Of a DNA stretch of 34,364 bases, positions 3,595 to 25,700 are shown in pieces; the first letter of the stretch is position 1, and every line of letters starts with the position of its first letter. The stretch comes from Rhizaria sp. SCN 62-66 (taxonomy: Eukaryota). Location: assembly GCA_001724265.1 (NCBI GenBank), contig MEDY01000322.1:1-34364 (forward strand), in the 5' to 3' direction. The notes below the pieces were generated by a model. It saw only the letters and a list, made by a program, of their open reading frames with translations, was not told the origin of the DNA and did no database searches. Position numbers and translations under genes: made by a program.

Positions 3595-3813
3595 AGCGAC
3601 GAGGGTGATCTTGACGATGATGATGACCACGATGACGATGACAACGTTGAGCCTGCGGCAAAGACTGAGACTGCGAGTCATGTTGGCTCCAGCAGTCGCT
3701 TTAAGAAGGCTGTATCGCTTTCACAGTCGCAGATGCCGTCAGAGTCGTTGACACAGATCGTTTCATAGTCCCTGGTTCATCACTTTTCGCGCTCGCAGTC
3801 GCGCTTGCAGACA

Positions 3814-3851
<38 letters not shown>

Positions 3852-4038
3852 CTCTCCCGCACAGTCGCTCCCGCAGTCGAAGACCGGCGCCCATGTGCCT
3901 TTCGTCGTGACCCTCAAGCCGCCGGTGGCGATCACGATGGCCTTTCACACCGCGTCGCTCCCCACTGCGTGCGACGACGGCCAGCAGCAGCAAGACGACG
4001 GTTGTGTCGGGCTGAATCTTCCGACTGCGTCAATGTAA
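553..4038 (+). CDS. Hypothetical Ala/Ser-rich protein (~1,160 aa) with a possible ARM/HEAT-like helical segment and an acidic tract. It has an in-frame TAG at 3766-3768, read as Gln.
   Basis: ORFs 454..3768 and 3805..4038 are in the same frame and separated only by one TAG (..LTQIVS*SLVHHFSRSQSRLQTQTQ..). GC-rich coding style persists to the TAA at 4036-4038 and AT-rich sequence follows. The first in-frame ATG is at 553, so the start is uncertain. The segment LINSLRDASPRRRAAAAQAVAAVAAASPACLLWAARLGLVEPLVLM looks ARM/HEAT-like (inference). Confidence 0.7.
3808..3849 (+). repeat. (CAGACG)n coding microsatellite encoding (Gln-Thr)n
   Basis: A tandem hexamer is visible directly downstream of the in-frame TAG. 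Confidence 0.9.
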
Positions 4039-5730: not shown

Positions 5731-8700
5731 TCAGTCGCTGTCGCTATCAGTGTCGGCGCCCGTGACGGTGTCGAACGGCGCGAACGCCGCCCGCAGCGCC
5801 GCCGTCGCCCTTTCCTCCTCCTCCTTCTCACTGCCGCCGCTGCCGCCGCTGCTCGCGTCGGTCGCCGCAGCGACGCAGCGGCGCCAGTCGGCGCGCTCGG
5901 GGACTCCCGCGGCCTCGGCCAGCAGCGCGCGCGGCAGCTCCAGCAGCGGCACGCGCGCGATCAGCTCGCTCACCGCGCCCTTGGCGTCGCCGCCCTCGGC
6001 AGCGCCAGCGGGAGCGCCTGTGCCGGAGCCAGTGCCGGAGCCAGCGCCGGCGGCGGTGAGGCTGATGCCCGTGGCGGCAGCGAGCGCCACGTCGCGGTCG
6101 CGTCCGCGCTCGCGGTCGCGCGCGGCCGGCGTCACGGCCCACAGCTGCTCACAGTCGCTGTCGCCCTCCTCCTCATCATCAGCAGCGTCAGCAGCAGCCG
6201 CAGCGTCAGCAGCGTCACCAGCAGCGGCAGCAGCGGCGGCGCCCTGCTGCTGTTGCTTGAGGGCGGCGATCTGGACCTGGGTTGGGAAGCGCCAGTAAAA
6301 GTACGGCGGCAGCTGCGACAGGTCAACCGCACTCGGATTGCTCTCGCCAGCGCCCTGCTGCTACTGTGGCTGCTGTTGCTGCTGTTGGTGCAAGGGTGTA
6401 CTTAGATCGAGCGCCGTGAGCATCTCCGCGATGCGCGCGCCCTGCCCACAGTCGCCGCGCACTCGCACCAGGCCGCGGCGACGCATTTCGCGCGCCACGC
6501 GCGCCGCGAACCCCGCCAGCTCAAAGGGGGCATTTGGACTCCCCGCAACAGCAACGCCGGCGGCGGCAGCGCCGCATCGCAGCGGGAGGCCGAGCGTCTG
6601 CACCTGCATGTGGTGTGTCGAGCGCGTCTTGTAGTAGCGCTCGCAAACCACGGTGCCCAGCCCCTGCGCCGCGTTCATGCCGCGCAGCCCGGCCAGGAAG
6701 CCCTCCAACTCACGCACCAGAGGCTTGACTTCCGCGCCGGGCCCAGTCGCGGCAGCGGCGACTGCGAGGCACGGCACGTGTGCGATGGGCAGCACGAAGG
6801 CATGCGAGCCGTTGATGGGGCCGCGGGGCAGCGCGAGATAACTTTCGTCGGCCACGGCGGCGACCAGGTGCGTCGCCGCGCGCGGGTTCGACAGACAAAA
6901 CCAGCAATCCGCGTCACCGGCCGCCACCGCACGTTCCTTGTCCCCGCGGCCGCCGCTGCTGGCGCGAGCGCGCTGGGCGGTCAAGACGGCGGCGGCCGCG
7001 GCGGCGAGCGAGAGCAGCGACGCCGCGGGCAGCGCGCGCAGCACGGCCGCCACCACGGGCGGCAGCGGCACCGCAGCAGCAGCAGTGCTGCTGTCAGCGG
7101 CGGCCTGCGTGTCAGAAGTTAGGCCGGCGGCCTGACTAATCGCGGCCTCCGCTGCGGCGAGCGCAGACGCGTGCGCGGCGGCGGCGGCGGCGGCGGCCAG
7201 CTCGCGGCTGCGCTCGCGCTCGACCACAGCAGCCACATCCTCCTCCTCAGCAGCGGCGGCATCGGTCGCAGCAGCGGTGGCGGCGCTGTGGATGCCGTTG
7301 CTATTACTATTGTTGTCGGCGCTCGCGTCAGAGGGCGCAAGCGGCAGCCCTGCGGCCGTGGCGGCGGCTGTCTCCCGTTGCAGCGCGCCGGCCAGCAGCG
7401 TCAGCACGCTCGACATCACGAACCGCGTCCGCTGGTGCTGCTGACCGTGGGAGTCACGTGTACCGTGCGTGCCGCTGCTCGAGGGGACGGGCTCGGTCTC
7501 GGGCTCGGCGATGAACTTGGCGTTAACAAGCGCACGCACCACGCGCATCAGCCCGCCCTGGCCCTGGCCCTGGCCCTGTCGCTGCTCACGGTCCCCCCGC
7601 TGCTCGCGGTCGCGCTCGCGCTCACGGTCGCGCTCGGCCTTGACGGGGCACATCCGCACATAGTGTTCGCCGCTGCCGCAGACCACGCACGCGTATCCCG
7701 CCGGCGGCGGCCCGTTATCACGCTCACGGTCACCGCGCTCCCGGTCGCCGCGCTCGCGCTCGCCGCGCTCGCGCTCGCGCGGCTGCTTGTCGGCGGCGCG
7801 CTGCTGCGCGACGGGGCAGTCGCTGATGTAGTGCGCGCCCGTCAGCCCGCACGCGTGGCACGAGTACCCCGCCGGCGGCGCCGCGCCCGGCGGCTGCGGC
7901 GCGCGGCGCTGCTGCTGCTGCTCACGGTCACCACGGTCACCACGGTCCGCACGGTCGCTGTGGCCACGGTCGCTGGACGACTCGGAGTCAGGCCGGCCGC
8001 GCTTCAGACCCCCAGAGCCAGAGCTGCCATCAGCGTTATTGTTGTTGTTGGAGGCGGCGAGGTGACAGTCGCGGATGAAGTGGCTGTTAGCGCCGCAGAG
8101 CCGGCACGCGTAGCCCGGCGGGGGCGGCTTGACTTCCCAGCGGCCCGCCACACGGCTGCCCGTGGCGGCGGCGCGCGCGTCGGCCTCCTCCAGCGACGCG
8201 AAGCGCAGCGCATCCACGCCTTCTTCGTGACCGAGACCGTGGCCGTGGCTGGCAGCGCTCGTGCCAGCGGCGCTTGCAGTGTACGTCGCGGGGGCCAGAG
8301 CGCTGCTGTTGCTGTTGCTGCTGTTTTGACTGATGTTCGTCTGCGCGGGGGCGCTACTTAGAATGGATGTAAGGGGGTATGGCGAGAGCGGCATCGCGGC
8401 CAGCGCGGCGGCCGTCTCGCCGCCGGCGTTGACCACGAAGCCAGAGTTCGCGCACATGGGCGTGATGGAGAACGCCGTGACGTCCTTTTGTTTAGCCGCG
8501 TTGCCCACGGGCGCCATCAAGTAAAGCCGCGTCACGACTGTACTCGTAGTACTTGTGCTGCCGCTGCTGGTGTTGACGATGTTGCGGTAAGGAGGCACGG
8601 CGGTGTAGGTGCCGCGCACGTGCGTGTAAGGGGCGCCCCTTAGACCGGCGTAGGTCCCCCCCGGCGCGTGCATCGACGACGAGATGTGGTACGCAGGCAC

Positions 8701-10125
8701 GACACTTACACTCGCACTTACATTCGTGCCAGCGGGAGCCCCGACACTCTGCGAGACGACGCCACGAAGCATCGGGCAGCCACTCAGCGCAGTCACGGGC
8801 GCAGCCGCAGTGCTCTCGGACGACTCGGCTGAGGAGTCTAAGGGGGTACTTACACTGGGCATGAGCGCGGCCCAGTTGTCTGGCGGCGACGACGACAGGA
8901 ACACGTCGCACACGCCCGCACCAGCGCTCTGACCGCTGTTTTGACCGGCGCCTTGACTGGTGTTTTGATCGAGGGCGGCGACGGCGCCCGTGAGCGCGAA
9001 CAGATCGGCCCGCGTGTAGCCAGACAGAGACAGGGACAGTGTCTGCGCCTGCGCGGGCGGCAGCGCGGCGCCCGAGAGGAAGGCCGCGCGCAGGCCGCAG
9101 GGCAGGATGCGCGCGCCCGCCTTACCCAAGTACAGCAGGTTGGGGGCGAGGGCCACGCCGACGCCGTCCTGCGAGACCGCGTCGGCGCCGCTCCCGCTCG
9201 CGCCACCGCTGCTGCTGCTGCTACTGCTGCTGGTGTAGAGAACTGAGGCGGGGAGGCCGGCCGCGGCAAGAACGGAGAGGGCGGGCCCGTCGCCGCCGTG
9301 GCCGTCGCCGTCGCCGGCGCCTGTTCGAGGGGAAAGATAGAACGAGTCAGGAAAAGATTGATTAGATTAAGCACGCCAATGAGATTACGAGCGAAAATCG
9401 TTTATAAATTCAATTAATTTTGATTTAAAAAAACAGCATGTTTAGTCTGATACAAAATCAATCATATATGACAGAGATACACAATCTAAAAGCTTCATCG
9501 CCTGAAGTACGCGGCACTCGTCATAGCGCAGGCTTGTAGCTGACTATATTCGAGTTGCTTGAGTGTGTGCAGGGACGTACCAAGGATAAAGTAGACCGGA
9601 ATGGGCAGCTTACGCTCGCCGCTCACGAGCGCAGCAAGCGCAGCGCCCGCACTCGCACTCGACGCGCCACTGCTAGCGCTCGCATTAGCATTGATGTTGG
9701 GTGAAGGTGCAAAGAAGGATCCGACGCAGAAGGCGCAGGCGAACTTGGCCTGGGCAAGGGCACGCGTAAGACGGGCTTCAAGCAGGTCGAAGCGGCCACC
9801 GACGTCGCCGAATACCAGACTGCGTTGCGGCGGCGTGCGCGCGTGGGCGGGCAAGTCGTGAGAAAGTGAAGGGAATCGAAGAGAAAGTTAGACAGATGAA
9901 TAGCGAAAGTGAAATAGGAGTTATGAAAACAAAGACATGGTATATCCAGACCATAAGTGTTGTTTGATGATACATTTGATCATCACCGCATTAAGTCTTC
10001 ATCACCGCTCGCAAGCGAGCTGCATGAGAACGATTGCGTGAGTCAACGATCAAGAGCAGTTGCAGGCGCGATTGTCAGTAGACGTACACCTTCACAGGCG
10101 CTGTGGCCGGGGCCGTAGTTGCCAT
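5731..10125 (-). CDS. CWF19L1: CWF19-like protein 1 (Drn1 family), 1,288 aa: N-terminal metallophosphatase-like domain, three CCHC zinc knuckles, and CwfJ C-terminal domains 1 and 2. Model: complement(join(5731..9320,9581..9819,10088..10125)), with an in-frame TAG at 6361-6363.
   Basis: The spliced N-terminus MATTAPATAPVKVLVFGDVGGRFDLL..FCVGSFF..PIPVYFILG and LAPNLLYLGKAG match the CWF19L1 phosphatase-like domain. CwfJ_C_1 is seen as DCWFCLSNP..HLV..YLALPRGP..H..VLPIAH..ER..HMQVQ. After the TAG come PYFYW and a CwfJ_C_2-like segment, LPRALLAEAAGVPERADWRRC..EEE..LRAAFAPFD. The gene ends at TGA 5731-5733, and exon phases are consistent. Confidence 0.93.
9321..9580 (-). other. Spliceosomal intron 2 of CWF19L1 (260 nt)
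   Basis: GTACGT donor, AT-rich body, CTAAT branch-like motif, pyrimidine tract and ACAG acceptor. The phase-1 join is in frame with ORF 6361..9156. Confidence 0.88.
9820..10087 (-). other. Spliceosomal intron 1 of CWF19L1 (268 nt)
   Basis: GTACGT donor and GCAG acceptor. Removal restores ..PVKV-LVFGDV. Confidence 0.8.
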
Positions 10126-10704: not shown

Positions 10705-13606
10705 ATGTCCGCGCGCGTGAACGACATCTGGACGCGCAAGGCGCGCTCGCTGGGCTTCCCTTCCCGCGCCGTGTTCAAGCTCATCGAGGCGCAACAGAAG
10801 TTCCGCCTGCTGCGTCCCGGGCAGCGCGTGCTTGACCTGGGCTGCTCGCCTGGGTCCTGGACGCGCCTCGCCGCGCGCTCTGTGGGGCGCAAGGGCTACG
10901 TGCTGGGCATAGACCTCACGCCGCTGGAGCACGACGAGGTGCGCGCCCTGGCCGCCGAGGTCGCGCCGTTGCGCATCGGCCAGGCGCCCCCCGCCGACCA
11001 AAGCAGCGCTGGCGCCAACAACAGCAATAAGCGCGGCGTGTCGAGTCTGTTCGGCAACGCGGCCGCGAGCGCCAAGGTGGGCGGCGCGGCCAAGGGCGAC
11101 GACGACGCCGCCGCCGCTGTGAGCATGGACGCCTACCTCAGCAAGCTCGAGCAGAAGCGAGTCCTCGCTGAGCAGCAGCAAGAGGAGCTAGAGGGGCAAG
11201 AACGAGAGCTTGAGCAAGACGGCGTTAGCACGAGCAGCGACGCTGACGCCGACGCCATCATGAACGACTCCACTCAAACAGCTGACGTCAACACTGCTGC
11301 ACCTGCTGCAACTTCTGTTGAGACGGCGACTCCTGGCGGCGGCAGCGGCCGCGCGTTGCTTAAGGCCGAGGCGCGGCTGGCCCGCTCGCGCGCGCCCGTG
11401 CGGCTGCTGTACGGCGACGTGACCGAGTGGCGGCCCGACGCGGTGCACCGGCAGGCCTTCGATGTCGTGCTCAGCGACATGGCGCCCAAAACCACCGGGC
11501 TGCCGTCGGAGGACGCGGCGGCCTCTGCCGAGCTCTGCCACGCCGTGCTCGACCTCTGTCCGCGCGTCATGAAGCCGCCCGTGCGCAAGTGGGTCACTTA
11601 CAACGCTGCTAGCGCTGACGCTGACGCCAGCGCCGCTGCCGGCAGCGCGAGCGCTCTCAGTGGACGCGACGGCAGTGACGCGGAGACTGAGGCTGACGCG
11701 AATGCGACTGCCGCTGCTGCTGGTGCTGCTGCTGGTGCTAAGAGCGCCAACGACAAGGGCGAGGTCGAGGAGGACGACGACGAGCGCGGCCTCCGCGACA
11801 TTGGCGCCTTCGCCCGCGCCGCCCCCTCGAGCGCCGGCGCCGCAGCCGACGCGAAGGTAAGTCGCGTGTCGGCGGCGACGGACCTGTACTCTGCAACGCT
11901 GCAGCGGCGGCTGGCCAAGGCCGGGCTCAGCGATGAGGACGCCGCCGCCGTCGCGGCCTCCGTGCGCGCCGCGCCAGAGGAAGTCACCGAGGTCGACGTC
12001 GCGGTTCTCAAAAAATCGCTCCGCACCGCCGCCAAGATCAGCGTCAACAAGCACAACTCGCGCTCTAGCGCCGCCGCGCCCGAGGGCGAGACCGCAGCGG
12101 CCGAGACGGCGAGCGAGCGGCGGCTGGAGACGTACTACCGCGGCGCGCTGCTCATGAAGGTCTTCCAGGGCACCGACTTCGCGCCGCTGCTTAAGCGTGT
12201 TAGGGTACGTGACATGCGCACTTGCCACGCGACGCACCGCGTGGAATGACTTGATTTGACGTCCATGTTCTGGTTATTAATGCGACTGTCATGTGACTAT
12301 GCTTGAAATAATTGCATGTTCTTTGCCTAAAATCCTATCTCACATCATCCTAACTTATCTATCTTTTTTTCATCCTCACTGATTTCTCTCCTCGACCCAC
12401 TGCTCTCGACAGGAGATGTTTGTGAGCGTCAAGTCGTTCAAGCCCGAATCATCGCGCTCGGAGTCGGTCGAAATCTTCCTCTTCGCCAAGGGCCTCCGCG
12501 TCCAGAGCAACAACAACAACCGCAACAATCTCTCTGACGGCGGCGACGCGAACATGAACGACCCCAGCGGCGGCCCCAACAGCAGCAGCGGCGGAGGCAG
12601 CGGCAGCGGCAGCCGGCTGGTGGGCCGCGCGAACGCGGGCTACATGACCGCCAGCGGCTTCGTGGCGCCCGCGGGCGGGTTGGGCGGCCTCCCCGTCGGC
12701 CCCGGCCCCGTCGGCCGCCGCCTGCAGCGCTCCCCGGTGCCCACCGGCTACTACGACAGCGACGACGCAGACGTCGCCGCCGCGCGCACGCGGCTCGGCG
12801 GCTATAACGGCGACGACAGCGAGGCGCATGCGCAGACGCAGGCGCAGGGGCGGCTTGACTTCGAGGGCATGAGCGCGGTGATGCGGCAGAACCTGGCGCT
12901 GGGTGAGAGCGCGTACTTTGACACCGTCGACGACAGCGTGCGCAACAACGACACCGGCCGCGGCGGCCGCAGCTACGCCAGTCGAGCCAGCCCTATCCCT
13001 AGCCCCAGCAACAGCAACAGCAACACTAAGACTCGCGATGGCAGCGGCGTGAGCGTGAGCTTCGGCACCGGCACCGTCACCGTCCCCGCCACCAAGTCCA
13101 CCGCTGCCGCTGCCGCTGCCTCTGCCTCTGCTGAGGACGCCGCAGTCGACGCCGAGCTGGCCGCGCTGGAGGCCGCCGAGACCCGCGCCCGCGCGCGCGC
13201 TGCCGCGAGCGCCGCCTTCGCCGACGAGGACGACGACGATGACTACCTTCCCCCCAGCAGCGGCAATAGCTCTGGCTCTGGCACTGGCAGCGGCAACAGC
13301 GCTGCGGAGCGCGTGGCGCGACTGCGCGCGCTGACGGGCCTGTCGCTGTCGCAGCCGGTCGCGGCGGCCGACGCGGCGGCCGCGGCCGCGGCCTTCAAGG
13401 AGGAGGGAATGTGGTTCGCGCGCCAGGTCTCGGTGCTGCGCGACGTGCCGCGCGTCGACATGGTCGGCGCGCTGGGCATCGACGACGATGAGGACGAGGA
13501 CGACGCCGCTGGCGCGGTGAAGAGGGTGAAGAAGACCGCGACTGCGGCGGCCGGCAGCGGCGTGATCAAGAAGAGGCGCCGCAGCAGCGTGCTCGGCGAC
13601 GAGTGA
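10705..13606 (+). CDS. MRM2: FtsJ/RlmE-family rRNA 2'-O-methyltransferase, MRM2-like, ~897 aa with long low-complexity insertions. Model: join(10705..12204,12413..13606).
   Basis: Motifs: D.WTRKARSLGFPSRAVFKLIE, VLDLGCSPGSWT (SAM binding), GIDL, GDV, FDVVLSDMAPKTTG, LLMKVFQG and, in exon 2, FVSVKSFKPESSRSESVEIFLFAKG. Together they give the full K-D-K-E tetrad. SDMAP-TTG is the RlmE/MRM2 type rather than the Trm7/Spb1 DGAP type. The gene ends at TGA. The true start may lie upstream, since there is an acceptor-like site at 10570. Confidence 0.88.
12205..12412 (+). other. Spliceosomal intron in the FtsJ/MRM2-like gene (208 nt)
   Basis: AGG|GTACGT donor, AT-rich body with CTAAC/CTGAT, pyrimidine tract and ACAG|GAG acceptor. 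The phase-0 join gives KRVR-EMFVSVKSFKP. Confidence 0.9.
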
Positions 13607-14014
13607 GCGTGCGGACAGTCGTTAAAAGATGTCATCAAGCACTGCAAAAGGACTTTTGTATCAGAGCTGAGGTGACGATGCTGGAGGTTGAGTGTATTTA
13701 TAGTATTATTTATCATCACAATCTGTGGATTTGGTCATGGTTTCAATAAATTAACCTAGTTTTGAAATCAAACAAGTGTATTACATCAAAATCTGTGTGA
13801 AAAACAAATTGGATGTAGGTTTCCAGTACGGTACGAACATGTAACCGTTAAGGAAAAATCAACTCAGCAATTTTGCTAAATTTTGAGTTAAAGGAAATTG
13901 TAGGTAAATCAACGAAGTGAATCATCTAAGTATTGTGAATTGTGATTCTAATTATGATTGAATGATGTAAATAATGAGTGTTATGCTGTTACAGCACTCC
14001 TGCACTGTTGTTGC

Positions 14015-17000
14015 TTACTCCAAGAGGAAAAAGCCAGCCCCGTCTCCAGCGTCGGCATCAGCGTTGGCGTCACCCTCTGTCCGTGACTGCGCCTGCGCCT
14101 GTGCGCCCTCGGCGTCCGCGTCAGAATCGGCGTCTGCGTCCGTGAAATCGATGAGACTGAGCGTCCTGGCCACGAAGCCCAGCCCCCGCCCCTTGCTCGC
14201 GCTCGCGCTCGCAATGCCGCTGCCGCTGCCACCACCGCTGTCAGCGCCGCCCTTGCTCTTGCTCTTGCTGCCGGCGCTACCGTGCGCGCCGGCGCCGGCC
14301 GCGCCGACCGTGGGCGTGGGCGGGAACGCTGACAGCATGTTCAGGTTGCTGCGCTGCTGCTGCTTCTTGCTGCTGCCCGCGCCAGCGCCCCCGCTCGCGG
14401 CGCCGGCGGCGCCGGCGGCGGAGGAAGACGAGAGTGAGACGGACAGCACGGGCCTGCGCCCGCCGCTGTTCTGAGCGTGGCTGTGGCCGTGGGCGCTGCC
14501 GCTCGCGCCCGCGCTGCTGATACTGCTGCTGCTGACCTGACCGCTGTAGCGAGAGGGTGTTGCGAGGTCTGCGGGTGTGCCGCTGTTGGTGTTGTTCGCG
14601 GCGGGTTTCGCCAAGAGAGGCGTTTCGGGGCGCGAAAGCGACGACGAAGTTAAGCCGTGAAAAGAAGCAGAAGCCGCGTTTGAGACAGATGCGGAGCCAG
14701 AGCCCACTGAGTGCGAGCTCGAACTGCTGCCAACGCTGCTGCTGTCAAAGCACGGCGTGCTGGTCCGCGTCACAATCCTGCTGACTCGGCCGCTGCCGCC
14801 ACCGACCGCGCTATGCGTGTTGACGTGCGCGCTCGGCTGTAACGGCAACTGCAACTGTGACTGAAGGCTGATGTCAAGTGCCTGCGAGTAGTGGCCGTGC
14901 GCAGCCAAGTGGCTGTGAGCAGAGAACTGACGGCCCTGGGCCCAACCGGCCTGGCTCTCGGGCGCGAGCGGCTGCGACAGCGGCTGAGCGCTGCCACGAG
15001 TCGTCATCAGAGCCGCAGTCGCAGCGGCCTCTCCACTTAGCGCGCCCGCCGCTGCGAAGCCCTCTCCGCTCTGCGCAACGCCTCCGATGACGCCGTGGAA
15101 GCGACTCACGCGCAAACCGAGGCCGAAGCCAGCGCCGTGGCCGTCGCCACCCTCGTCGTTTCCATGTGCGCGCTCCCCAGCGACCGCAGCGGCCGCAGCG
15201 GGGTCGATCTCGGCCTCGGCCTCCGTCTCAGTCTCGACCTCGGTCTCAGTCTCGGCCTCCGCCTCAGTTGCCTCAGCCTCAGCCTCGGCCTCGGTCTCGG
15301 TCGCCTCAGTCTCAGTCGCATCTGCCTCCGCCTCCGCCTCAGCCTCGGCCTCAGCCTCTGCGGCCTCGGCGACGACTGCGCGCAGGTACCCGCCGACGCG
15401 CCCGGCGACCGCGGCGACTACCGCGCCCGCCGCCGCGCCCGCCGACGCCGCCACGGCCGCGGCCGCGCGCGCGAGCGGACCCGCGCGCCGCGCCGCCGCG
15501 CGCTGCTGCTGCAGCGCCAGGTGGCGGCTGATGGCCGCGCGGACCACGCGCTCGCGGTCGCTGCGCTGGTGCTCGCGGTCTGCGCGGTCCAGCCGCTCGC
15601 GCTCGCGGTCACTCTGCCGCTGGAGCTGCTGCTGCTGCTCGCGGTCACTCTGCTGCTGGTGCTGCTTGCTGGTGCTAAGGTTGTTGCTGTTGCTGTTGCT
15701 GCTGGAATTGAAGCTCGAACTAGAGCTGTTAGTGCCGCTGGTAGAACCTGCATTGCCAAAGCTAGCGTTGTTCAAATGAGCGCTCTTAGACTCTGCAGCG
15801 GCGGCGTCGCATAAGTGCACCTTAGCCTGGTCGAAGTGCCGCTCCCCGTCCAAGTGTGACTGCTCGGCCCACAAGCTGCCGCCGGCGGGGGCCAGCGGTG
15901 AGCGCGGCGACAACAGTGCCGCGGCGCCCGCCCAGCCCTGTTGCGGGCTATGCTGCTGCTGCTACTGCTGCAGCTGCTGCTGCTGCGGCCGCTGCAGCGA
16001 GACCGCGTGCTGCAGCTGCAGCGCCTGCGCCTGCGAGTGCGCGTGCGCGCGTGCCCGCCCGTCGCTGCCGCCGTAGCTGCCAACGACGACCCCGCTGCCG
16101 GCGCCGGCGCCGTCGCCGTCGTCTTCGTTGTCTCTGGGCAGGAGCGCGGCGGCGGCGGCGGCGGCGGCGGCGGGCGACGAAAGCGCCAGCGCCAGCCGCG
16201 CGGCGGCCTTGCTTTCGAGGCCCGACTGGCGTCGGGGCTGCAACACGTACCCGCTCTGGCTCAAACCGAGACTGGAACTAGAGCAAGCGCCAGCAGCGCT
16301 GCCATTGCTGATGAGCCCTGTAACGAAACTGAATCGAGCAATGTTGTTATTGTTGCCGTTCGCGACAGGCGTGCGCCGGGGGGTGCGGCGCTTGCTCGGT
16401 GTCCGACCCCCGCTTGCGGCCGCAGAGCCAGCGCCAGCGCCAGAGTGGGCGTTCGGACTGGGGCTGGGGCTGGGGCTGGGGCTGGGGCTGGGGCTGGGGC
16501 TAAGATGGGACGTCGGCGTGAGCGTTGCTGCGGAGGCATCGCCGCTGCTGTAGTTGGGGCTGTGCTTAGGGACGCTACGATCGTCATCGTCATCATCGTC
16601 GTCTTCGTTGTTAAAATCGCCAACGTATGCGATATCGTCATCACAATCGCACTCGCTGTCGCCGTTGCAGCCGCAGTCGCGGGCGTGGCTGCTGTCGGCG
16701 ATGCTGTCGTTCAACGCGTCTTCGTCGTCGTCGTCGTCGTCGTAGTCGTCATCCTCCTCGCAGCTGTCGTCGTGGTCGTCGTGGTCGTTGCAGTCGTCGC
16801 AGCCGCCGTCGCCGACGCTACGCCCATGCGCGCAGCACGCGCTGCCGGCGACGGCGTCCTTGTCGCCCGCAACAGCGTGGTGATGGTGAGCGCCCCGACT
16901 CGCAGTCTTGGCGTTGGGGCTCATATGGTTCCTGAGCCGGTTGACGACGATGTCGTCGGCGTCGTCCTCGTCCTCTTCGGCCGCCAGCGCGAGCCTGAGC

Positions 17001-20000
17001 CCGCCGGCGCCGGCGATGGCGGAGCCCACGGTCACCTGCAGCGCGCTGCCCACGGTCGCCTGCAGAGCAGAGCCCACCGAGCTGCCCATGCGCGTCAACA
17101 ACCGCAGCGGCAGGCCCCCCTCGGGCTCGGGCTGCGGCGGGGACTGCGAGCGCAGCTGCGACTCAGACTGGGACTGAGACCGGGACTGAGACGGGGACTG
17201 GGTCTGGGACTGCGTTGGAGAAGACGACTGAGATTGAGACTGAAGCAGCCTCTGCTGCTGTTGCTGCTGTTTTTGATTTCGCTGTTGCTCCTTTTGTGCG
17301 CGTTGCAGCTGGCGCCGCTGCAGCTGGCGCCGCTGCAGCTGCTGCTGCTTTTGCTGCATCTGCTGCTGCTGCCTCTGCTTCATCCCCATCCTGCCGCTCG
17401 CACTCGCAGGGACGCTTACACTGGCGCCCTGCCGCTTGGCGACGCTTGCGGCGGCCAGATGCAGCCGCAGCTGTTTGAACGCGAAGGCCCCGACCACGCT
17501 GCCGACAACGGGGCCGATCGTGTACACGAGGCTGGTCACCACCAGCCCGTCCCCCCACTCGCCCGCGCCCTCACTCGCGAGACTAACCGCACCCGCACCC
17601 GCACTCGCGCTCGCGCGGGAGCCAGTGACGCGGATGCCAGCACCAGAGACGGCGCTGGCCGGTGCATTAGTGCTAGAGACCGGCGGCCCGTGCGCGAGCG
17701 CAAGAAGGACCGCGCCCAGCGCCGAGGCGGGGTTCATCACGGCCTTGCTGTACGAGTAGACGGCCACGTAGCAGCACTGGCGCACGAGGATGTTGGACAG
17801 CGTCTTGCGGACGGAGCCGCCGCGGTGCGACGTGAGCGACTGCCAGAAGGCCAGCACAGCGCACACGGCCAGCTCGAGCGTCAGCCCGACGACGGGCCCC
17901 GCGGGCGGCAGCGGCGGGCGCAGCGCGGGGTGGTACGCCGCGGGCGCGAGCAGCTCGAGCGTGGCCAGCGCGGCGGCGTGCGCGGCCACGTCCAGCACAA
18001 ACACCAGGAGCAGGTGCCGCTTGCGCAGGCGGCCATGGCACCAGTGCGTCACCGCGTTGGACGGGTTAATCAGCGCGCCCGTGCCCGCCTGCGCGAACGC
18101 GAAGGAGAAGACGCAGAAGACGAGGAAGTAGACGGCCGTGTCGCTGACGCCCAGGCTGCGCAGCGCGGCCGAGTGCGAGATGGTCGCCTTGGCTGCCAGC
18201 GCCAGCGACTTGCTCAGCAGGCAGTGCAGAAAGGCGAACACGAACTCGCGCAGGGAAACCGTGAGCAGCAGCTCCAGTTCCGCGAGGAACGTTAAGCCGC
18301 CTTGGGGCGCGGCGTCGGCGTCAGCGGTCACATCATCTCCGCTGCTCTGTTGCTGCTGCTGCTGCAACTGTTGCTCATGTTCGCGCTCGCTGACGACGCT
18401 TGGAGTCGAACCAGCGGCGATCGCGGTGTTTGAGTTCGACACGCCGTGTTCAGCAACGGCCGCACTGCTCTGGTGAACACGCTCTTTGCGCTTGATGTCG
18501 CTGCTGCTGCTGCTGCTATGGCTCTGCGCCGCGGTGTACTGCTTGAGCCGCAGCGCACGGGGCCCGTAGACGAGCAGCGCCGCCGCCAGCGCCGCCACGG
18601 CCACGCGCTCCGGCCGCGAGAAGTGCGCCGACAGCAGCGCCGCTAGCACCGGCGCCGCGCGCGCGCGCTCCCGCTCGGCCTCGCTGTGGGCGCCGTCAGC
18701 GTCGGCGTCGTCGGTGTCGTAAACGGAGGAATGCGGCAGCGAGAAGGCGGCGGCCGCGGCGGCGGCCGTCGCGGCGGCCGTCGCGGCGCCCGCGGTGGGG
18801 GCCAAGGCCAGATGCAGCGCGCCCAGTACGCGCAGCGCAGCGGCGGCGACTGCATCACCGACAGTCGCCGTGGCCGTGGCTGTGGCCGTGGCCGTGGCCG
18901 TAGCGGTATCCGTGGCAGTCTTAGTGGCAGTGCTCGCCGCGTCCGATGCGCGAGAGCTCTTGCTCCTGCGCTTGCCCTTAGCCTGGCCCTCGGGCACGCC
19001 AACGTGGGCTGATCCGGCGCCCGCGGTGTGGCCGTTGCGCGCGAAGAGCGCCGCGAGCAGCGAGCCCTGCGGCATGAGCGGGGCCAGCGCCGCGCCCACG
19101 GTCGCCGCCGCGCGATCCGCGGCGGCGCGCACTGAGCCGCGCGCAGTGCCGCGCGCTGAGCCGCGCAGTGCGCCGCGTGCGGTCGCGCTGGAGTCATCGC
19201 CGCTGCCGCTGGCACTGCTGGGGTCAGCGTCGATGTCGATCTCTGCGAGGCTGTTGTGGCTGCCGTGGGCGCAGGCGTAGGAAGTCAGGCCGCACAGCCA
19301 GTCCGCCGCGGCAACGAGCACGACAGCGGCGACGCCGCGAGCATTCGCGCCCGTGCTCTCAGCAGCAGCAGCGGCGGCAGCAGCAGCGCTAGTTGCACCG
19401 GCGGCAGCAGCAGCGCTAGTTGCACCGGCGGCTGCGCTGTGGTTGGCGGTGAGGCCGAGACTGACACCGGCGTCCGTCACCGTCGCGGCCGCACTGGCAG
19501 CCGCAGTCGCGGTCGCGGCGAAAGCCGCAGCCAGAGCTGTCGCAGTCGTGGCCGCCGCCGCCGTCAAACCAGCCGCGACCGCAGCCGCCGGGCCGTCTAA
19601 GTGCTCCTTCACGGCGTCTAAGTGCCCTTTGACGACGTCTAAGTGGGCCCTGACCGCGGGCCAGAGCGCGGGCGGCAGCAGCAGCGGCAGCAGTGGCGTC
19701 AGCAGCGCCGTGGCGAGCAGCAGCTGCGGCAGCCCCCAGGCCAGCAGCCGCGCGAACAGCGGCAGCCAGTAGAGCGTCGAGAAGAGCGCGGGCACGGCGC
19801 CGGCGCCGGCGCCTGCGGCGGGGTCTGCCGTCGCGGCCTCGGTCTCGGTCGCTGTTAAGGTCGGGGGAAGCACGGCGCGGCGGCGGCGGCGGCGCGGGGC
19901 GGCGGCAGCGGCGGCGTCGAGAGGCTGAGGCTGAGACTGCTGTTGCTGCTGCTGCGGGTGCTGAGACTGCTTGTGTTGATGCTGGAGTTCTGGAGACGCT

Positions 20001-21277
20001 TGCGGCAACAGCGCTGCGCTGTCATCACTAATGCGGGTGCTTGCGTCAGCGCTGGCGTCAGGAAGTGGGTACTTAGACCTCTGCGGCTTGATTTCCTCGG
20101 CGGCGGCTCCGTCGCCCTCAGAGTCTCTGTCGCCGTCGTCGTCGCCGTTGCCGGTGTAAGGGCCGTACTTGTCAACGCGATTCTTAGCGGGGGCGCCGTC
20201 AGAGGTGCGAGCGCCCACGGTGTGAGTACCCTTAGACCGGTTACGGACGCCCTCCTCCTCCGCGTGCTCCTCGTCAGTGCTCAGACGCAAGGCACCTAGA
20301 CTGAGGGCGCTCGGACCAGGTGCGCCCTTAGCCTCAGCATCAACACCTGCCGTCGTGACGTTTGCGTAGTTCGATAATGTCGCAGACTCTGCAACTGCGC
20401 TTTTGCTGTCATATTTGTCGTGTCCGCCGCCACCACCGTCGTGTTGGTGGTCGTGCTCGTGGGGGCTCTCGACGAACGTGGCCAGCAGCGGCGCCCGCTG
20501 CGCCGCCCGCAGCCGCAGCTGCGACCGCAACAGCGGCTGCGGCCGTGGTGGCGGCAGCACGCGCAACGCCGCGGAGGCAGCGGCAGCAGCAGCGGCGGCG
20601 GCGTCAGCGTCGGCTGTGCCGGCGGCATCGGCTGTGAGGTTCGCGTCGCTGCCGTCGCCGCTGCCGCCGCCGGCAGGCGCGCGGGCCGCGGCCAGGGCGG
20701 AGATCGCGCGCGCTGCGGCGGCGAACGAGCCGCCCCTGGTCTCGCCGCCGCGGCCGCCATCACCGTCACCGTTGTGGGCGCCACCGTGGCCGTGGTCGTG
20801 GCCGTGGCCGAGGCCGAGGCCGGGTCTGCTCTTGTCGTAGTGACTCTTGCTGCCGTCGCCTCGAGAGCCTTTCGCCCGGACCTTGGCCTTGGCTTTGTCG
20901 CTCTTGCTGCCGGCCGCGTCGCCACTCGCGCCCGCACTTGCGCCAGCACCCGCAGCCGCGCCGGCAGTCATAGCTAGAGCTACATCGCACGTGCGCAAGC
21001 CAGGAAGACTCGAACTGCTCGAACGACTACTCGAGCTTGCGGCAGGGCCAGAGACGGCGACGCGCGCTGGGCTGGTCTTGGAGCCCTCGCTGTAACCCGC
21101 GGCAAGCCTGTTCGCGTTCCTCGGGGACAGGAAGCCTGAGGCCGAGCCGGCGTTGGCGCCGGAACCGGACGCAGTGGCGGTGGCTGACGAGGCGGAGGCG
21201 GCCGCGGCGGCTGCGGTGGGTGAGAGCGCGATGAACGACCAGCTGCGCGTGTGGCGACCCACACGCGAGTCGTCCAT
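14015..21277 (-). CDS. Giant (~2,420 aa) low-complexity protein containing an unorthodox MIP/aquaporin domain, with an in-frame TAG at 15962-15964
   Basis: ORFs 15962..21277 and 14015..15913 are in one frame and joined through a single TAG inside poly-Gln (..QQQQLQQ*QQQQHSPQQ..). An in-frame TGA upstream (21359-21361) supports the ATG at 21277. The frame ends at TAA 14015-14017, or at a splice donor there. Confidence 0.8.
16458..16501 (-). repeat. (AGCCCC)n coding microsatellite encoding (Ser-Pro)n
   Basis: A tandem GGGGCT hexamer is visible on the + strand. Confidence 0.9.
17470..18290 (-). other. MIP/aquaporin-like domain (SIP / AQP11-12-like) with NPS and NPA boxes
   Basis: Hydrophobic helices with LREFVFAF, GALINPSNAV (NPS at 18059-18067), LTLELAVC, AVMNPASALG (NPA at 17726-17734) and LVYTIGPVVGSVVGAFAF. 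Confidence 0.8.
19594..19645 (-). repeat. 21-nt tandem repeat, ~2.5 copies (HLDVVKG HLDAVKE HLD)
   Basis: CGTCTAAGTG recurs three times at 21-nt spacing. Confidence 0.8.
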
Positions 21278-22701
21278 GGCGTGATGTGTGCAAAAAGGGT
21301 GTGTTAGTGGGGAAAGAGGTGCGCGGGCGCACGCAGGAGCGCCGGAAGGGCTGGTTAGTCAGCAACGGCTGAGCGCCTGGAAAGGTCTGCGCTCGGAAGA
21401 AACAAGGAAGACGAATGACGGGAAACAGCAAATGTAAAAAAGAAATATGTTCATGCTTAAATTATGTCAACCCGCCTAAATTGTCAATGACGGTCATTGC
21501 TCCGAGAAATTCCTCACCAAAAACAGTATCATTGGGTTAATACAACTCCGTTTTCCTTCCCACGGTTGTCATCGGTGATGGCCATGTTTGTGGTGTGTAA
21601 GAGTCGATTCAAAAACGTCGTCGTTGTCACGTTGGTGAGTGTCATGATTGCGTTTTTGATGTCGATGAAGATGTTCGGTGGTGTTTTTCTATTTGTAGGA
21701 GCTGGTATTGCCCTGTTTCTTCAGCGCCCTCCTTCAACATCATTATTACAGGTCCGCGGTTTGGCAACATGTGAGTTGGCGGTATTGTCAGCGATCCAGT
21801 CATGTCCCGGCCCGGCACTGCCCGTTGCCCGCAGGTTTGCTCAACAGCAAACGGCGCACTACCGCCGGCTCGGCGACGACCGTTGCTGTCACGGTGGCGG
21901 GGCCAGGGCCTGTCCCCGCGCTTAGGCTGGCCTCGGTGCACGACAACGCAGGCAGCGGCGGCGGCAGTAGCAACAACAGCGGCGGTGTTGTTGGTGTCGT
22001 TGGTGGCGGCCACATGAGTGCGCCGGGCAGTGCGCGCGTGAGTGCACGGCTTACGCCCGCAATGGCGGATGATCTAGAGGCCGGGCTGCCGAGTCTCCGC
22101 AATAAGACAGCGACGAACTTGTTATGGCACACGGTAACGAGTCTGCTTCTACTGCTGCTGTTGCTGCAGGGAACGCGCGCAGCGGGGATAAAAGCGCGCG
22201 TGGTGGCGTCCATGTCAGTGTAACTTCCAATGCGCCTGCGCATGCGGCACTGGCGACTGAGACGCCTCGGGGCCGAGTTAGTCTCGTTAGTTTGTTTGTT
22301 CGGCACTTTCTTTGTTACTTTAGTACGCGCGTCCTCAGTGAAAAAAAAATATTCGTTGTATGTCGTTATTTGTTGACTCATTTGTACTCTTTATTGTAGT
22401 TTTGCGGTCCGATAAAAGGTGAGTTAGCGTTCACACATAACAGACCTGAGCATATTTTTTCTTACCGTTACTAGTTAAGAAGCGTAAACTTCAGGTTTTT
22501 CTTCTGATTACTAGATATTTCGAGAAGCCACACGTTCTAGTATTGGCTTTGTTTGACGTTACTGATGCGATGACACTCGTCATGTTTGAATCGCGCTCTA
22601 AACTTACACTATAACTTCCCTGACTCTGTTGTCGTTATGAGTTACAGGGAATATCGACGCAGTCGTGCGCATAGACTTGCTGTCTCCACGTACTCTCTCG
22701 C

Positions 22702-25700
22702 TCAACTCAGGAAAAGCCTCTTGAATTCCGCTGTGCGAAACACTTCGAACTCCTTCGCTGTGTCTTTGCTGTTTGCAAAATACTCCGCCACTGCCCGCCG
22801 CTTTGACTGAGCAATTGCGTTGAACGCATCACGCACGCGCTTTGCACGCCGCTCAGTCCGCAAACGCGCGTAGTCACTTGGAGATGGAAAGAGGTTCTTT
22901 TGCAAGCCGTGACGCTTTGAACATTGAGAGACGTGTGTGTGCATTTCAGCCATGCCGTTCGTAACAACGTTAAAACACACGCCGCAAAAGCAGTGGTCAT
23001 ATGATCCTGTGTTGCACGAGTCGTCGTCCTGCTTCCGTTCGTTGTGAATGCACGACACAGCTGCGCAGCCTTCCCAGTCAATGACAAACCGCCGGCACGA
23101 AGGCTTGGGGCAGCGGTCAAGCAGGGCCTCGCGAACTGTAGCAATTTCCTTGGCATGCTGCTGCTCAAACACGGTTGAACGGGCAAACTCGGGATCACCC
23201 ATAGGGTAAGTGCACTTGCACGAAACGCAGCGAAAGTCTTTCCCTTTTATCGAGGCCTCTGTTTAAAAAATATTAATAGTACAGTGTACAGATAATGACA
23301 TGGACATTAAAGAAAACCAATGTGAGAAATTACCACAAATGCGTTTGCTTTTGGATTAAAACACAAATCACTCATATAGGTTATAGAACCAACGTTTTTG
23401 TTTAATGGTGCACAAATAAATATTTTGTTTGACGTACTGTTATCAATGAGATTTGTCGCGAGTTGAACCTCTGAACACTTGGTTGCAGGGCACTTGACAT
23501 ACTTGACTTCCTTTTGCGCAGCAAGAAAGTCGTCGCGAGACTTTGTAAGCATCGCGTGTATGTCGTCTTTGGAAAGTGCGGCCCATGGCACGTCACGTAA
23601 CTGGTATGGCTTCTTGCAGACGCCGCAGTGGCATCCGTCACGCTTGATGTTGGCAACAGCTGCCGAGAGGCAATCAACGCACACAACATGGTTGCACTTG
23701 ATGGGCGCAATGCCAACGTTAAAGCGAGTGATTGTGTCGCCGCAGACAATGCAGCTGTCGGGAGCAACAACGTTCAAGATGTTGCTTGGAGGTTGGTCGA
23801 CATAGTTCTCGGCTGTTCCTGACATTAAAGCAACAAAATCATCAACCTGGCTTTGAGTTCCAGAAAGATAAAACACTTTGTTGAGTAATGATCTTTCATT
23901 CACAGCTGCAGTGACGCTTGTAACGTCTACAGCAGCTTTGAGGACATCAACAGGAATATCATAAACTGACTCAAATTTGACATCAACACACTCGTAAGAA
24001 AGCACTTTCTCTTCAAAAGAGAGCACAGCAGCGCGCACGCGCTCGCACCGGTATGCGTTGCCGTAGAAGTAAACATGTCCTGATTGCGCACACAACTTGC
24101 CCCAGCACCTTTCGCTAGCATCACCACCGTTGCTGAAGCTGCCAACGGTGCCAGTAGTAATATCTGACGTAAAACCCTCGCCGTGTTGACCAAACAGAGC
24201 CGCGAGATGGGCACGCGCGGTCGGACCAGTCATGCGGGAGAGCGCATCGGGACGAGAAGTTGAGATTCTATGCTTGATAAAAGAGAATGTGTTGTGGAAC
24301 GCTTCTTGAGCGCGCATTGCTGCGTGCTCTCCTCCAACCATCACATTAATCTAGTACCGACGCAATTGAGTGCACCAGCTGTCCGAAACGCCAACCTGAC
24401 TCCGAACTCTCATGATATCAAGAGCCTGCTTCAGAAGATCGCACATGTATGACCCCACAGCATGACCGACATCTGGCGGCAACTCCACTGTCATACACAC
24501 CATGTCGCGATACTCAGTCACGTTTTCACCCCACAGTGCTTTGCGATCAAGACTATCTGGGACGAGACTTTCTTCAGTATCAAAAAAGAACAAATCCTCC
24601 TTATCTTTGTGTGTCCGGCCGTACCCGTACATTATTGGTACATCAGACAGCGTAGGATGGCTTGAATAGTAGGCTGATTCCGAGGGCACGCCCCACGTAA
24701 AGCGAGTGCATTTGCGCACGAAAATCTCAGAGGATGTGTAAAAGTCACCATGCTTAACGCATGTAGGAATCATCATTGGTTCTACGTATTTCGATTCATA
24801 AACAGATTTGATAGCTTTAGCATCCGAGTTAGAAGTGCAAAGAACCACGTCATGCACACGTCCTTCTGTGCCTGGGATTCGGGTGACAGAACGCGAGACC
24901 TGAGGCTCCAGTGAAGACAAAAACTGTGGTAGCAATAGGTGTTGCACGCCGCTCTGAGTTTCACCGTTGCACGATGAGGTATTGATGAAGACTGCTGCTG
25001 TTTTAGCGTCTTCGCCAAGCAGCAAGGTCTCTGCCACAAGACCTGCTCCACAGTGCAACGTTGTGCCACAGCCCAGGTCAAAGCAGTAGATCTCTTTCTC
25101 GATGTACCTTAGCGCTTTGACCATTACAGACCTCAGTCCCTCATCAATTAGGCGATTGGGATGCATTGCTCCCAGATAGCGAATATAATTCGCACCAAGA
25201 GAGTAGACACCTTGCCCGCTAGAGTTGTTGTTACAGTTCAATTTGTCTTCCAACTCCGCCTTTGACCCGAAGACTGCGCGAATGATTCCCGTTGAGTAAG
25301 GATTGTCTTCCACAAATATACTCTTCGGGTTGTTTTGGGTGCCCTTAGCCTCGTAGTCACGGAACTCGGTGCCGGCAAGGTTTTTAGCAATTGAGGTAAT
25401 TGTGTCGACAGTCTTGCCGGCGGCGGCCCTCAGTGCATGAACCCAAATTCTAGCGTCAACAGCGTTAAAGCTCGACACAATATCACGTTCAGCCGCGCTA
25501 GCAATCTCAGTAGCCTCTGAAGCGTCCCTAAAAAGGACACCCACCGTCTTCCGCAGATGCCAAAAACACATTAGTAACCTCACTGAGTTCTTGGTGTTAT
25601 TTATGCCATTGCGGTGCTGCTGCGCCAGGAGGGGGTTTTCGGGCTCTGCATCTGTCATGGCGGCCGAAAGCTCATTGCACGCATCAGTCTCGAGCGGGAT

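Follow-up and report, generated by a model that had tools for sequence, protein, structure and literature searches.

Nuclear genetic codes that part UAG from UAA are described as rare and limited to a handful of lineages, in which the two codons are reported to be mechanistically separable despite wobble (PMC5304391, PMC11687900). According to Panek et al. (2017, PMC5304391), the nuclear code of Iotanema spirale (Fornicata) reads UAG as glutamine and uses UAA and UGA as stops. UAG is also reported as glutamine, with UAA as the preferred stop, in Hartmannula sinica, Trochilia petrani and Protocruzia tuzeti (McGowan et al. 2024, PMC11687900). Both UAR codons specify glutamine in NCBI table 6, which is listed for many ciliates, Hexamita, Ulvophyceae, Streblomastix and Amoeboaphelidium (PMC11687900). 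Stop codons with a dual meaning have been reported too. UAA is given as both glutamate and stop in Blastocrithidia nonstop (PMC12153298, PMC12152300), and Condylostoma and the karyorelicts are further examples.

The window analyzed here is a 34,364-nt stretch of DNA (contig MEDY01000322.1). We put at about 0.7 the probability that it is nuclear DNA of a GC-rich eukaryote in which UAG is read as glutamine and UAA and UGA are stops. This variant code is rare, but already known elsewhere. The organism is intron-poor, with very GC-rich coding DNA (70–75% GC) and AT-rich spacers, and it recurs across wastewater and bioreactor metagenomes.

Genes and codon counts

Six gene models (g1 to g6) were examined. 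Gene g1 (445..4038, plus strand) is a stop-to-stop frame of 1197 codons, the start codon of which was not fixed. It is a low-complexity orphan and matched no Pfam family.

Gene g2 (5731..10124, minus strand; join(10124..10088, 9819..9581, 9320..5731)) is CWF19L1-like and ends with TGA GCT. Pfam matches were CwfJ_C_1 (1.3e-17) and zf-CCHC_2. The main frame matched residues 79–117, 197–247 and 324–428 of the PDB chain of CWF19-like protein 1, and the exon upstream of it matched residues 4–49. Intron 2 (9321..9580, 260 nt, GTACGTCC...GAACAG) lies between these two exons, which match CWF19L1 in the order of the human protein. Intron 1 (9820..10087, 268 nt, GTACGTCT...ACGCAG) is probable; it was placed by using the ATG at 10124, the reading frame and the motif at the donor, and the 12-codon first exon that it sets off has no homology.

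Gene g3 (10705..13606, plus strand; join(10705..12204, 12413..13606)) is FtsJ/RlmE-like, ends with TGA GCG and contains no TAG. Its first exon matched Pfam FtsJ (3.1e-25), and residues 2–27 of the second exon corresponded to positions 155–180 of the 181 in the profile. The product looks like a putative mitochondrial-type RlmE/MRM2 methyltransferase. The intron (12205..12412, 208 nt, 44% GC, GTACGTGA...CGACAG) is in phase 0.

Gene g4 (14015..21358, minus strand) is a low-complexity stop-to-stop frame of 2447 codons with one TAG and a central aquaporin-like (MIP) domain. The piece 17339–18421 matched Pfam MIP over positions 12–222 of 222 (E 3.6e-05) at 24.1 bits, the curated cut-off being 25. 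Gene g6 (28576..34362, minus strand; 1928 codons) is also of low complexity, is open at the end of the window, contains two TAGs and ends with TGA GCC. Gene g5 is described below with its intron.

Over 9126 codons the six models contained 6 TAG, 0 TAA and 0 TGA in frame, a tally that is partly circular for TAA and TGA as these bound the frames themselves. The window was therefore re-read with TAA as glutamine (table 6) as well. In this small sample of six terminators, four genes ended at TGA (5731–5733, minus; 13604–13606, plus; 22702–22704, minus; 28576–28578, minus), two at TAA and none at TAG. The four TGA ends, and the contrast of six internal TAGs with no internal TAA, had been noted in an earlier sequence-only reading, and both observations were borne out.

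No credible tRNA gene was present in the window. The lone ARAGORN call lay inside g1 and lacked Rfam support, and an Rfam scan of the whole window matched no family. No eRF1 gene lies within the 34 kb.

In-frame TAG codons

Five of the six genes contain TAGs that break an otherwise continuous frame. In g4, the TAG at 15962..15964 (minus) lies in a CAG run, CAG CAG CTG CAG CAG TAG CAG CAG CAG. In g2, the TAG at 6361..6363 (minus) is similarly placed, in CAA CAG CAG CCA CAG TAG CAG CAG GGC. One of the two in g6 (30943..30945, minus) stands where Q is due in a (PQ)n repeat, CCT TAG CCC CAG CCC CAG; the other is at 31630..31632 (minus). The remaining two are in g1 (3766..3768, plus) and in g5 (24351..24353, minus), the latter in a non-repetitive context with 304 further codons of exon 1 before the donor at 23437. 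Thus, three of the six TAGs fall within CAG runs or a PQPQ repeat, and the glutamine assignment is well supported by this placement. Glutamine is the most likely sense meaning of UAG.

Coding-like stretches continued in the same frame past the TAGs for 648, 347, 228+788, 209 and 89 codons. The shortest, the 89 codons of g1 between TAG 3766 and the TAA, scored +21.9 bits in codon usage, with a GC3 of 0.81. The g2 frame past its TAG showed a faint match to residues 488–517 of CWF19-like protein 1 (1.3 bits, individually non-significant). Pfam gave no match for the parts of g1, g2 and g4 that follow the TAG. None of the TAGs was aligned to a conserved glutamine of a homologue; that of g2 lies in a poly-Q insert, and that of g5 has no relatives covering it.

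The TAGs might instead be assembly errors, pseudogene lesions or programmed read-through sites under the standard code, and the small share of TAG among the glutamine-type codons (CAA 75, CAG 335, TAG 6; 6/416) would fit such a reading. On the other hand, TAGs are spread over five of the six genes and are each followed by long coding sequence in the same frame, frameshifts and TGA or TAA lesions do not accompany them, and no gene ends at TAG. In addition, two of them were identical in other assemblies: an X1 contig covering 3863–7161 showed 0 differences from the window across TAG 6361, and a 1250-bp contig from another metagenome collection (locus L001) was identical over TAG 24351. The standard code is therefore highly improbable here.

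The two probable TAA terminators

The sequence-only reading had placed both TAA terminators inside the string G-TAA-GC, and the letters confirmed this. The stop of g1 (4036..4038, plus) reads ATG TAA GCT. That of g4 (14015..14017, minus) reads TTG GAG TAA GCA ACA and appears as TTA on the plus strand. The accompanying claim that both coincide with a drop to AT-rich sequence also held. GC3 fell across the TAA from 0.78 to 0.25 in g1 and from 0.68 to 0.35 in g4, and overall GC fell at both.

Codon usage changed at the same points. In g4 the log-likelihood was +42.0 bits for the 89 codons before the TAA and −26.5 and −48.1 bits after it. In g1 the 89 codons past the TAA scored −46.0 bits with a GC3 of 0.31. 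The collapse of codon score and GC3 was located exactly at both TAAs, as it was at the four TGA ends.

No coding sequence was seen beyond either TAA. The g1 frame contains four further TAAs in the next 186 codons, within a spacer of 41% GC that reaches the convergent g2. Downstream of g4 all three frames are stop-rich and each is closed within 45 codons, up to the point where g3, which is convergent, has its 3' end; no open frame was found there, and the next GC-rich block is that 3' end, on the other strand.

Contigs from other runs supported the letters at both sites. X1, X4 and X7 contigs matched the window over 3863–4213 or more, which spans the g1 TAA. An X4 contig (13524–14184) and an X6 contig (13952–14277) matched it over the g4 TAA, and the sole difference was at 14115. 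In the comparison of runs, low-complexity repeats gave 1542 joints, of which 15 were listed.

A word-indexed search with the C-terminus of g4 found no homologues. All-against-one HMMER gave one low-complexity match (E 6.8e-04, residues 206–293), which was uninformative. Genes g1 and g4 are low-complexity orphans, their C-termini having no homologues for comparison. From the evidence above, the TAA at 14015–14017 is the genuine stop of g4, and that at 4036–4038 is the genuine stop of g1.

Stop context and splice donors

GC comes directly after each of the six terminators, whether TGA or TAA, and after none of the six sense TAGs. Of all the TAA triplets in the window 8.2% have GC next to them, as have 9.9% of the TGA triplets, and the share of GC among the dinucleotides in the 3' flanks is 5.1%. 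This suggested that GC is a shared termination context at positions +4 and +5. The GTAAGC appearance would then arise from the final G of a G-ending codon, the TAA and the GC of the stop context, with no donor involved.

The sequence-only reading had raised the possibility that GTAAGC is a splice donor. If so, each TAA would be part of an intron, and g1 and g4 would have their real last exons and stop codons further downstream. GTAAGC does look like a eukaryotic donor of the generic kind, introns do occur in the window, and the g5 intron carries an in-frame TAA 42 codons past its donor. However, the donors of the introns predicted in the window are GTACGT in four of four cases (GTACGT[CG]), from which GTAAGC differs at two positions. 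The GC after the TAA is common to all four TGA terminators. The short closed frames past g4 and the AT-rich spacer past g1, both running into a convergent gene, offer no last exon.

RNA evidence at 14018 (minus), a check that the earlier reading had proposed, pointed the same way. A contig of the poly(A) RNA run X6 (record 19; 13952–14277) was unspliced over 14015–14018 and continued for 63 nt beyond. It is a single contig of 326 nt at a depth of 2.64; contigs of this kind cannot show transcript ends, and carry-over of DNA is possible. At 4035 (plus) the covering contigs were probably DNA, with no RNA contig among them. Among the 32 X6 pieces listed (21,556 more exist), none covered the g5 intron or any of the TAGs at 3766, 6361 and 15962. 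The GTACGT donors, the GC after every stop, the lack of coding sequence downstream and the unspliced RNA together largely removed the donor interpretation, which we consider very unlikely.

The g5 intron and a third TAA

Gene g5 (22702..27956, minus strand; join(27956..23438, 23258..22702)) is about 50% GC and ends with TGA GCG at 22702–22704. Its spliced frame is open apart from TAG 24351. The intron (23259..23437, minus) is 179 nt long, 29% GC, and reads GTACGTCA...AAACAG.

This intron holds a third in-frame TAA (23307–23309, minus), which follows the long g5 frame and was absent from the list in the sequence-only reading.

Weak, sub-threshold RING matches were found in exon 1, and IBR/Rcat-like Atlas features in exon 2; these are leads by which g5 may be predicted to encode an RBR protein. 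No zinc-finger or RBR protein came up when exon 2 was searched against PDB sequences. Relatives of g5 in the protein database were limited to fragments of the window itself and one cluster that was 56% identical over residues 37–690. The metagenome collection yielded only the identical 1250-bp contig, and the genome-contig and viral-contig collections yielded none.

A candidate reading of g5 straight through the intron, which would take TAA 23307 and TAA 23247 as sense, was also scored. With a codon table made from exon 1, exon 2 gave +41.4 bits spliced versus −0.4 bits unspliced. Among the 179 residues of the unspliced frame there was a single Asp, and Glu and Tyr did not occur. On the other hand, of the 10 single-base differences listed for a second haplotype in exon 2, 7 were synonymous in the unspliced and 3 in the spliced frame; this haplotype also carries a 5-nt deletion and a 6-nt insertion. 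On balance, the haplotype pattern was outweighed by the codon score, the residue composition and the IBR/Rcat-like features of the spliced frame, and the unspliced candidate was rejected.

Alternative meanings of UAA

If UAR is glutamine throughout, as in table 6, TGA is the sole stop and g1, g4 and g5 extend to the next TGA. This is reported to be the commonest variant nuclear code (PMC11687900), and the 200-codon unspliced continuation of g5, with its haplotype pattern, is open as it demands. Re-reading the window in this way, however, added sequence that did not look coding. The continuation of g1 was AT-rich, with 5 TAAs in 187 codons and −77.8 bits; that of g4 was AT-rich, with 2 TAAs in 32 codons and −30.4 bits; other additions scored −66.7 and −14.0 bits and were non-coding. 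The g5 continuation had the poor score given above and was nearly without acidic residues. GC follows the TAA stops of g1 and g4 just as it does the four TGA stops, and TAA is absent from the 9126 coding codons, a count of low power. The strict form, with TGA as the lone stop, is contradicted by the window and was rejected; we left it almost no probability.

A dual meaning of UAA is harder to dismiss, though still unlikely. UAA would stop g1 and g4 and elsewhere at times encode glutamine, through a UUA-anticodon tRNA or wobble, sense UAA being too rare in a GC-rich genome to show in 9126 codons. With usage like that of TAG, the expected number of internal TAAs is 1.34, which makes a count of zero unsurprising (P(0) = 0.26), and Blastocrithidia nonstop provides a reported precedent (PMC12153298, PMC12152300). 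The reservation of the sequence-only reading about rare UAA as glutamine thus stands. Against this, nowhere in the window does a TAA connect coding-like blocks, no positive evidence for sense UAA was seen, and a CUA-anticodon tRNA suffices for every TAG.

The uniform GC after the stops allowed one more, improbable, interpretation: the termination signal may be extended to TRA plus GC, and UAG may be glutamine because it lies outside that context. UAG-GC, or UAA and UGA outside the context, could then carry the opposite meaning. The code would be context-dependent, in a new GC-rich, TGA-dominant lineage unrelated to the UAG-only ciliates and fornicates.

The reading of UAG as glutamine with UAA and UGA as stops was thus preferred. 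It had been favored from the sequence at the outset, and the codon scores, the GC3 collapse, the introns and the stop context support it. In line with the remark in the sequence-only reading, the published accounts (PMC5304391, PMC11687900) treat reassignment of UAG alone as the rarer case.

Proposed mechanism and significance

A tRNA-Gln with a CUA anticodon would decode UAG alone. The release factor would drop or weaken its recognition of UAG, yet retain that of UAA and UGA. As a UUA-anticodon tRNA is not required, UAA would be free to remain a stop.

The window suggests one further case of UAG-only reassignment, in an uncultured eukaryote. It is set apart from the known cases by very GC-rich coding DNA and by TGA, not TAA, as the main stop. 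In the literature searched, no GC-rich wastewater eukaryote with UAG as glutamine and UAA and UGA as stops was found. UAG is still a minor glutamine codon, which could mean that the reassignment is young. Codon-capture logic would not predict the loss of the UAG stop in a GC-rich genome, and thus the case could inform models of code origin. In practice, gene callers that use the standard table cut such genes at every TAG, and the database proteins of this contig are such fragments.

Comparison with known codes

Iotanema resembles the window in that, as reported (PMC5304391), UAG is the sole reassigned stop, encodes glutamine and ends no gene. Its apparent in-frame UAAs are attributed to retained introns (PMC5304391), as TAA 23307 is intronic here. 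On the other hand, Iotanema is described as an endobiotic anaerobe in which 119 complete transcripts end with UAA in 104 cases and UGA in 15 (PMC5304391), whereas TGA outnumbers TAA four to two in the window. UAG is reported to be frequent there, at 204 in 126 genes (PMC5304391), in contrast to the 6 of 416 glutamine-type codons here. The 70–75% GC of the window coding DNA is another difference, and a mitochondrial-type methyltransferase, as putatively encoded by g3, would be unexpected in a fornicate such as Iotanema.

The three ciliates have the same code, deduced from genomic data, and a CUA-anticodon suppressor tRNA blind to UAA is likewise invoked as the mechanism (PMC11687900). In these, UAA is given as about 87–92% of stops and UAG as 18.5–31.8% of glutamine codons, and the GC range given for the Phyllopharyngea is 27.4–53.6% (PMC11687900). 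In our judgement, the window is unlike a ciliate macronucleus in its 180–270-nt GTACGT introns, its multi-gene 34-kb DNA and its TGA-dominant stops.

Table 6 codes share UAG as glutamine with the window, but in these UAA is also described as glutamine and UGA as the sole stop (PMC11687900). Here two of the six genes end at TAA, and coding never continues through one. In the dual-meaning codes, sense use of stops is reported to be abundant and to involve other amino acids (Glu and Trp in Blastocrithidia), whereas the window shows no sense TAA or TGA. A stop codon that serves both as terminator and as sense is conceivable here as in those codes, and the GC after all six terminators, a fixed downstream context, could in principle mark the true stops.

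Reading frames and source of the DNA

Along the window, GC-rich blocks (70-75% GC) alternated with spacers of 41-50% GC. With TAG taken as a sense codon, stop-to-stop reading turned the GC-rich blocks into very long frames: g1 (445..4038, +, 1197 codons), the main frame of g2 (5731..9366, -), g4 (14015..21358, -, 2447 codons), g5 (23307..28019, -, before splicing) and g6 (28576..34362, -, open at the window end). The strand of the g3 block (10.5-13.6 kb, +) was assigned by a codon-usage scan. The composition of g5 was about 50% GC (GC3 0.55) against 70-75% (GC3 ~0.8) in the adjoining genes, all within 34 kb.

The predicted products were mostly of low complexity and rich in Ala, Ser and Gln, with recognisable domains in g2, g3 and g4. 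Pfam detected CwfJ_C_1 and three CCHC knuckles in the g2 product, an FtsJ methyltransferase domain in that of g3, and an aquaporin-like MIP domain in that of g4 (24.1 bits, just below the cut-off of 25 bits). In a PDB sequence search, g2 and human CWF19-like protein 1 (CWF19L1) matched collinearly. Since CWF19L1 associates with the spliceosome and the genes contain spliceosomal introns, the window is eukaryotic nuclear DNA. The sequence recurred in metagenomes of seven studies, taken from bioreactors, wastewater, activated sludge and microbial fuel cells. ARAGORN reported a 90-nt tRNA-Ala(GGC) at 2662-2751 (-), antisense inside g1, where Rfam gave no tRNA; it is probably spurious.

TAG as a glutamine codon

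The six gene models (9126 codons) contained six TAG, no TAA, no TGA, 335 CAG and 75 CAA, the zero for TAA being partly circular, as the frames had been delimited by TAA and TGA. Four genes ended at TGA, at 5731 (-), 13604 (+), 22702 (-) and 28576 (-). The other two ended at TAA, at 4036-4038 (+; TCA ATG TAA GCT) and 14015-14017 (-; TTG GAG TAA GCA). The recount bore out what the sequence-only reading had listed, namely two TAAs in G-TAA-GC, four TGA ends, six TAGs and no internal TAA. Both TAAs and the TAG at 6361 had the same letters in contigs of other runs and studies, and the TAG at 24351 was identical in a contig from another metagenome collection. These codons were therefore not assembly errors.

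Three of the six TAGs lay in unmistakable glutamine contexts, each a single C-to-T change from CAG: CAG CAG CTG CAG CAG TAG CAG CAG CAG in g4, CAA CAG CAG CCA CAG TAG CAG CAG in g2, and CCT TAG CCC CAG CCC CAG within a (PQ)n repeat in g6. Every TAG was followed in the same frame by 89 to 788 codons of coding sequence. The shortest such stretch (g1, 3769-4035) scored +21.9 bits in frame, whereas its other frames gave -53.2 and -20.3 bits. After the g2 TAG, residues 488-517 of CWF19L1 aligned faintly, in the expected order. A protein search gave no g5 relatives reaching across its TAG. Judged from these contexts, TAG is most likely a glutamine codon in the window, accounting for only 1.4% of the glutamine-type codons.

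The public protein predictions for this contig were fragments split at TAG (24351-27977 and 23307-24350; 1201 and 336 aa). The organism is thus mis-annotated by standard-code gene calling.

Introns and the end of g5

Four introns of 179-268 nt were found, always with the donor GTACGT(C/G) and the acceptor (A/G)CAG; otherwise the genes were intronless across thousands of codons. The g3 intron (12205..12412, +; 208 nt; GTACGTGA...CGACAG) split the FtsJ domain: exon 1 matched the profile from position 2, and the first 27 residues past 12413 corresponded to positions 155-180 of 181. One g2 intron (9321..9580, -; GTACGTCC...GAACAG) separated two CWF19L1-matching exons, the upstream exon (9581..9819) covering residues 4-49 and the main frame matching from residue 79. 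A second, probable one (9820..10087, -; GTACGTCT...ACGCAG) joined a 12-codon first exon, with ATG at 10124.

The g5 intron (23259..23437, -; 29% GC) had GTACGT at 23437 and AAACAG at 23259. Unspliced, the long frame continued beyond this GTACGT to a third TAA, at 23307-23309. Directly past the acceptor, a frame of 186 codons with many Cys and His residues opened. Scored against the codon usage of exon 1 of g5, the spliced frame reached +41.4 bits versus -0.4 bits for the unspliced continuation, which contained no Glu, one Asp and no Tyr among 179 residues. In a protein atlas the spliced-frame peptide had features like IBR/Rcat (scores 0.92-0.94, in clusters with 13-42% such members) and an atlas model with pTM 0.69; this predicted likeness offers leads, not proof. 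Exon 1 gave weak RING-type matches just upstream (E 0.03-0.5, under the cut-offs), and an RBR ligase identity was unconfirmed by Pfam or PDB sequence search. We judged the third TAA to be intronic and g5 to end at the TGA at 22702. If g5 instead ended at 23307, that TAA would be a third TAA terminator; in neither case is it a sense codon.

A second haplotype, in contigs of three other runs (X1, X4 and the poly(A) RNA run X6), differed from the window at many positions, in 21875-22236 and in g5 exon 2 (22785-23088). In exon 2 there were at least 10 single-base differences; the contigs also lacked 5 nt at 22963 and carried 6 extra nt past 22998. Among the differences listed, 7 of 10 fell at third positions of the unspliced frame and were synonymous; in the spliced frame 3 of 10 were synonymous and 7 of 10 hit first codon positions, although these seven changes were conservative (D>N twice, E>K twice, E>Q, T>S, F>L). 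This pattern favours the unspliced frame, against our main reading; if that frame were the coding one, the TAAs at 23307 and 23247 would be sense codons. We judged the codon score, amino-acid composition and fold-like features of the spliced frame to be stronger; the second haplotype could represent a degenerate allele, a paralogue or an artefact of the alignment.

A further GTACGT at 22688-22693 (-), 8 nt past the g5 TGA, might serve as donor for an intron in the 3' UTR or have arisen by chance (the window has 10 copies of this hexamer, with 8.55 expected). The sole g5 relative found, an unnamed protein cluster, was 56% identical over residues 37-690. Its C-terminal part differed, with no RING/IBR-like end, and by eye appears to resemble a vWA domain. 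Its presence in the protein database indicated that a related organism is in public assemblies.

Stop context or splice donor

The sequence-only reading had also noted that GTAAGC is a valid splice donor, an ambiguity now largely resolved in favour of stop codons. GTAAGC differs at two of six positions from the GTACGT shared by all four donors. GC followed all six terminators: TAA GCT (4039-4040), TGA GCT (5729-5730), TGA GCG (13607-13608), TAA GCA (14013-14014), TGA GCG (22700-22701) and TGA GCC (28574-28575). This was far beyond chance, since GC came directly after only 8.2% of the TAA triplets in the window and 9.9% of the TGA triplets, and made up 5.1% of dinucleotides in 3' flanks. None of the six sense TAGs was followed by GC, and of the 380 TAG triplets in the window just 11 were. 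The GC after both TAAs is thus a feature of the organism's stop codons and may belong to an extended termination signal; the G before them is simply the third position of ATG and GAG.

Past g4, all three frames were shut within 45 codons (33% GC), and GC-rich sequence resumed only at the 3' end of g3, a gene of the + strand. Past g1 lay spacer up to the convergent g2. A 326-nt X6 contig from the poly(A) metatranscriptome covered 14277 to 13952 in one unbroken piece, reaching 63 nt beyond the TAA, and was thus unspliced at 14018 (-), the g4 site for which splicing had been considered. The X6 run had zero or near-zero depth in AT-rich spacers that DNA runs cover. As a single contig of depth 2.64, this was weak evidence against splicing.

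Probable role of TAA as a stop codon

The window was re-read with table 6, and every stretch added by sense TAA was scored by codon usage. Those at the 3' ends of g1 (187 codons, 5 TAA) and g4 (32 codons, 2 TAA) scored -77.8 and -30.4 bits, as non-coding sequence does. The stretch at the 5' end of g2 (137 codons, 5 TAA; intron 2 plus an out-of-frame part of the upstream exon) scored -66.7 bits. That at the 5' end of g5 (49 codons, 2 TAA) gave -14.0 bits, an uninformative value as the first 49 real g5 codons also gave -9.7 bits. The 89 codons leading up to the two TAAs scored +21.9 and +42.0 bits, and stretches of 89 codons past the terminal TGA of g2, g3 and g6 scored -74.1, -54.7 and -20.2 bits. 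By the scores on either side, the TAA ends behaved just as TGA ends do, and for this window a code whose sole stop is TGA was rejected. The earlier preference for UAA as stop and UAG as glutamine was supported.

Rare or context-dependent sense use of UAA may nevertheless occur in this organism. With CAA scaled by the TAG/CAG ratio, 1.34 internal TAAs were expected and P(0) was 0.26, so that finding none was unremarkable, and the earlier reservation about rare UAA=Gln stands.

Comparison with known codes

According to PMC11687900, a tRNA with the anticodon CUA reads UAG only, and one with UUA would also read UAG by wobble. The pattern seen is exactly what would result if a tRNA-Gln(CUA), which is a single base away from tRNA-Gln(CUG), were combined with an eRF1 no longer competing at UAG; neither gene was in the 34-kb window.

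The same paper gives UAG-only changes to Leu and Ser in a rhizarian, uncultivated phyllopharyngean ciliates and Scotinosphaera. The first record of UAG as glutamine beside the stop codons UAA and UGA came from Iotanema spirale, as stated in PMC5304391. The code of the window fits this kind but differs in detail, with coding DNA of 70-75% GC, more TGA than TAA stops (4 to 2), TAG at just 1.4% of glutamine-type codons, and GC after every stop; literature searches gave no description of such an organism.
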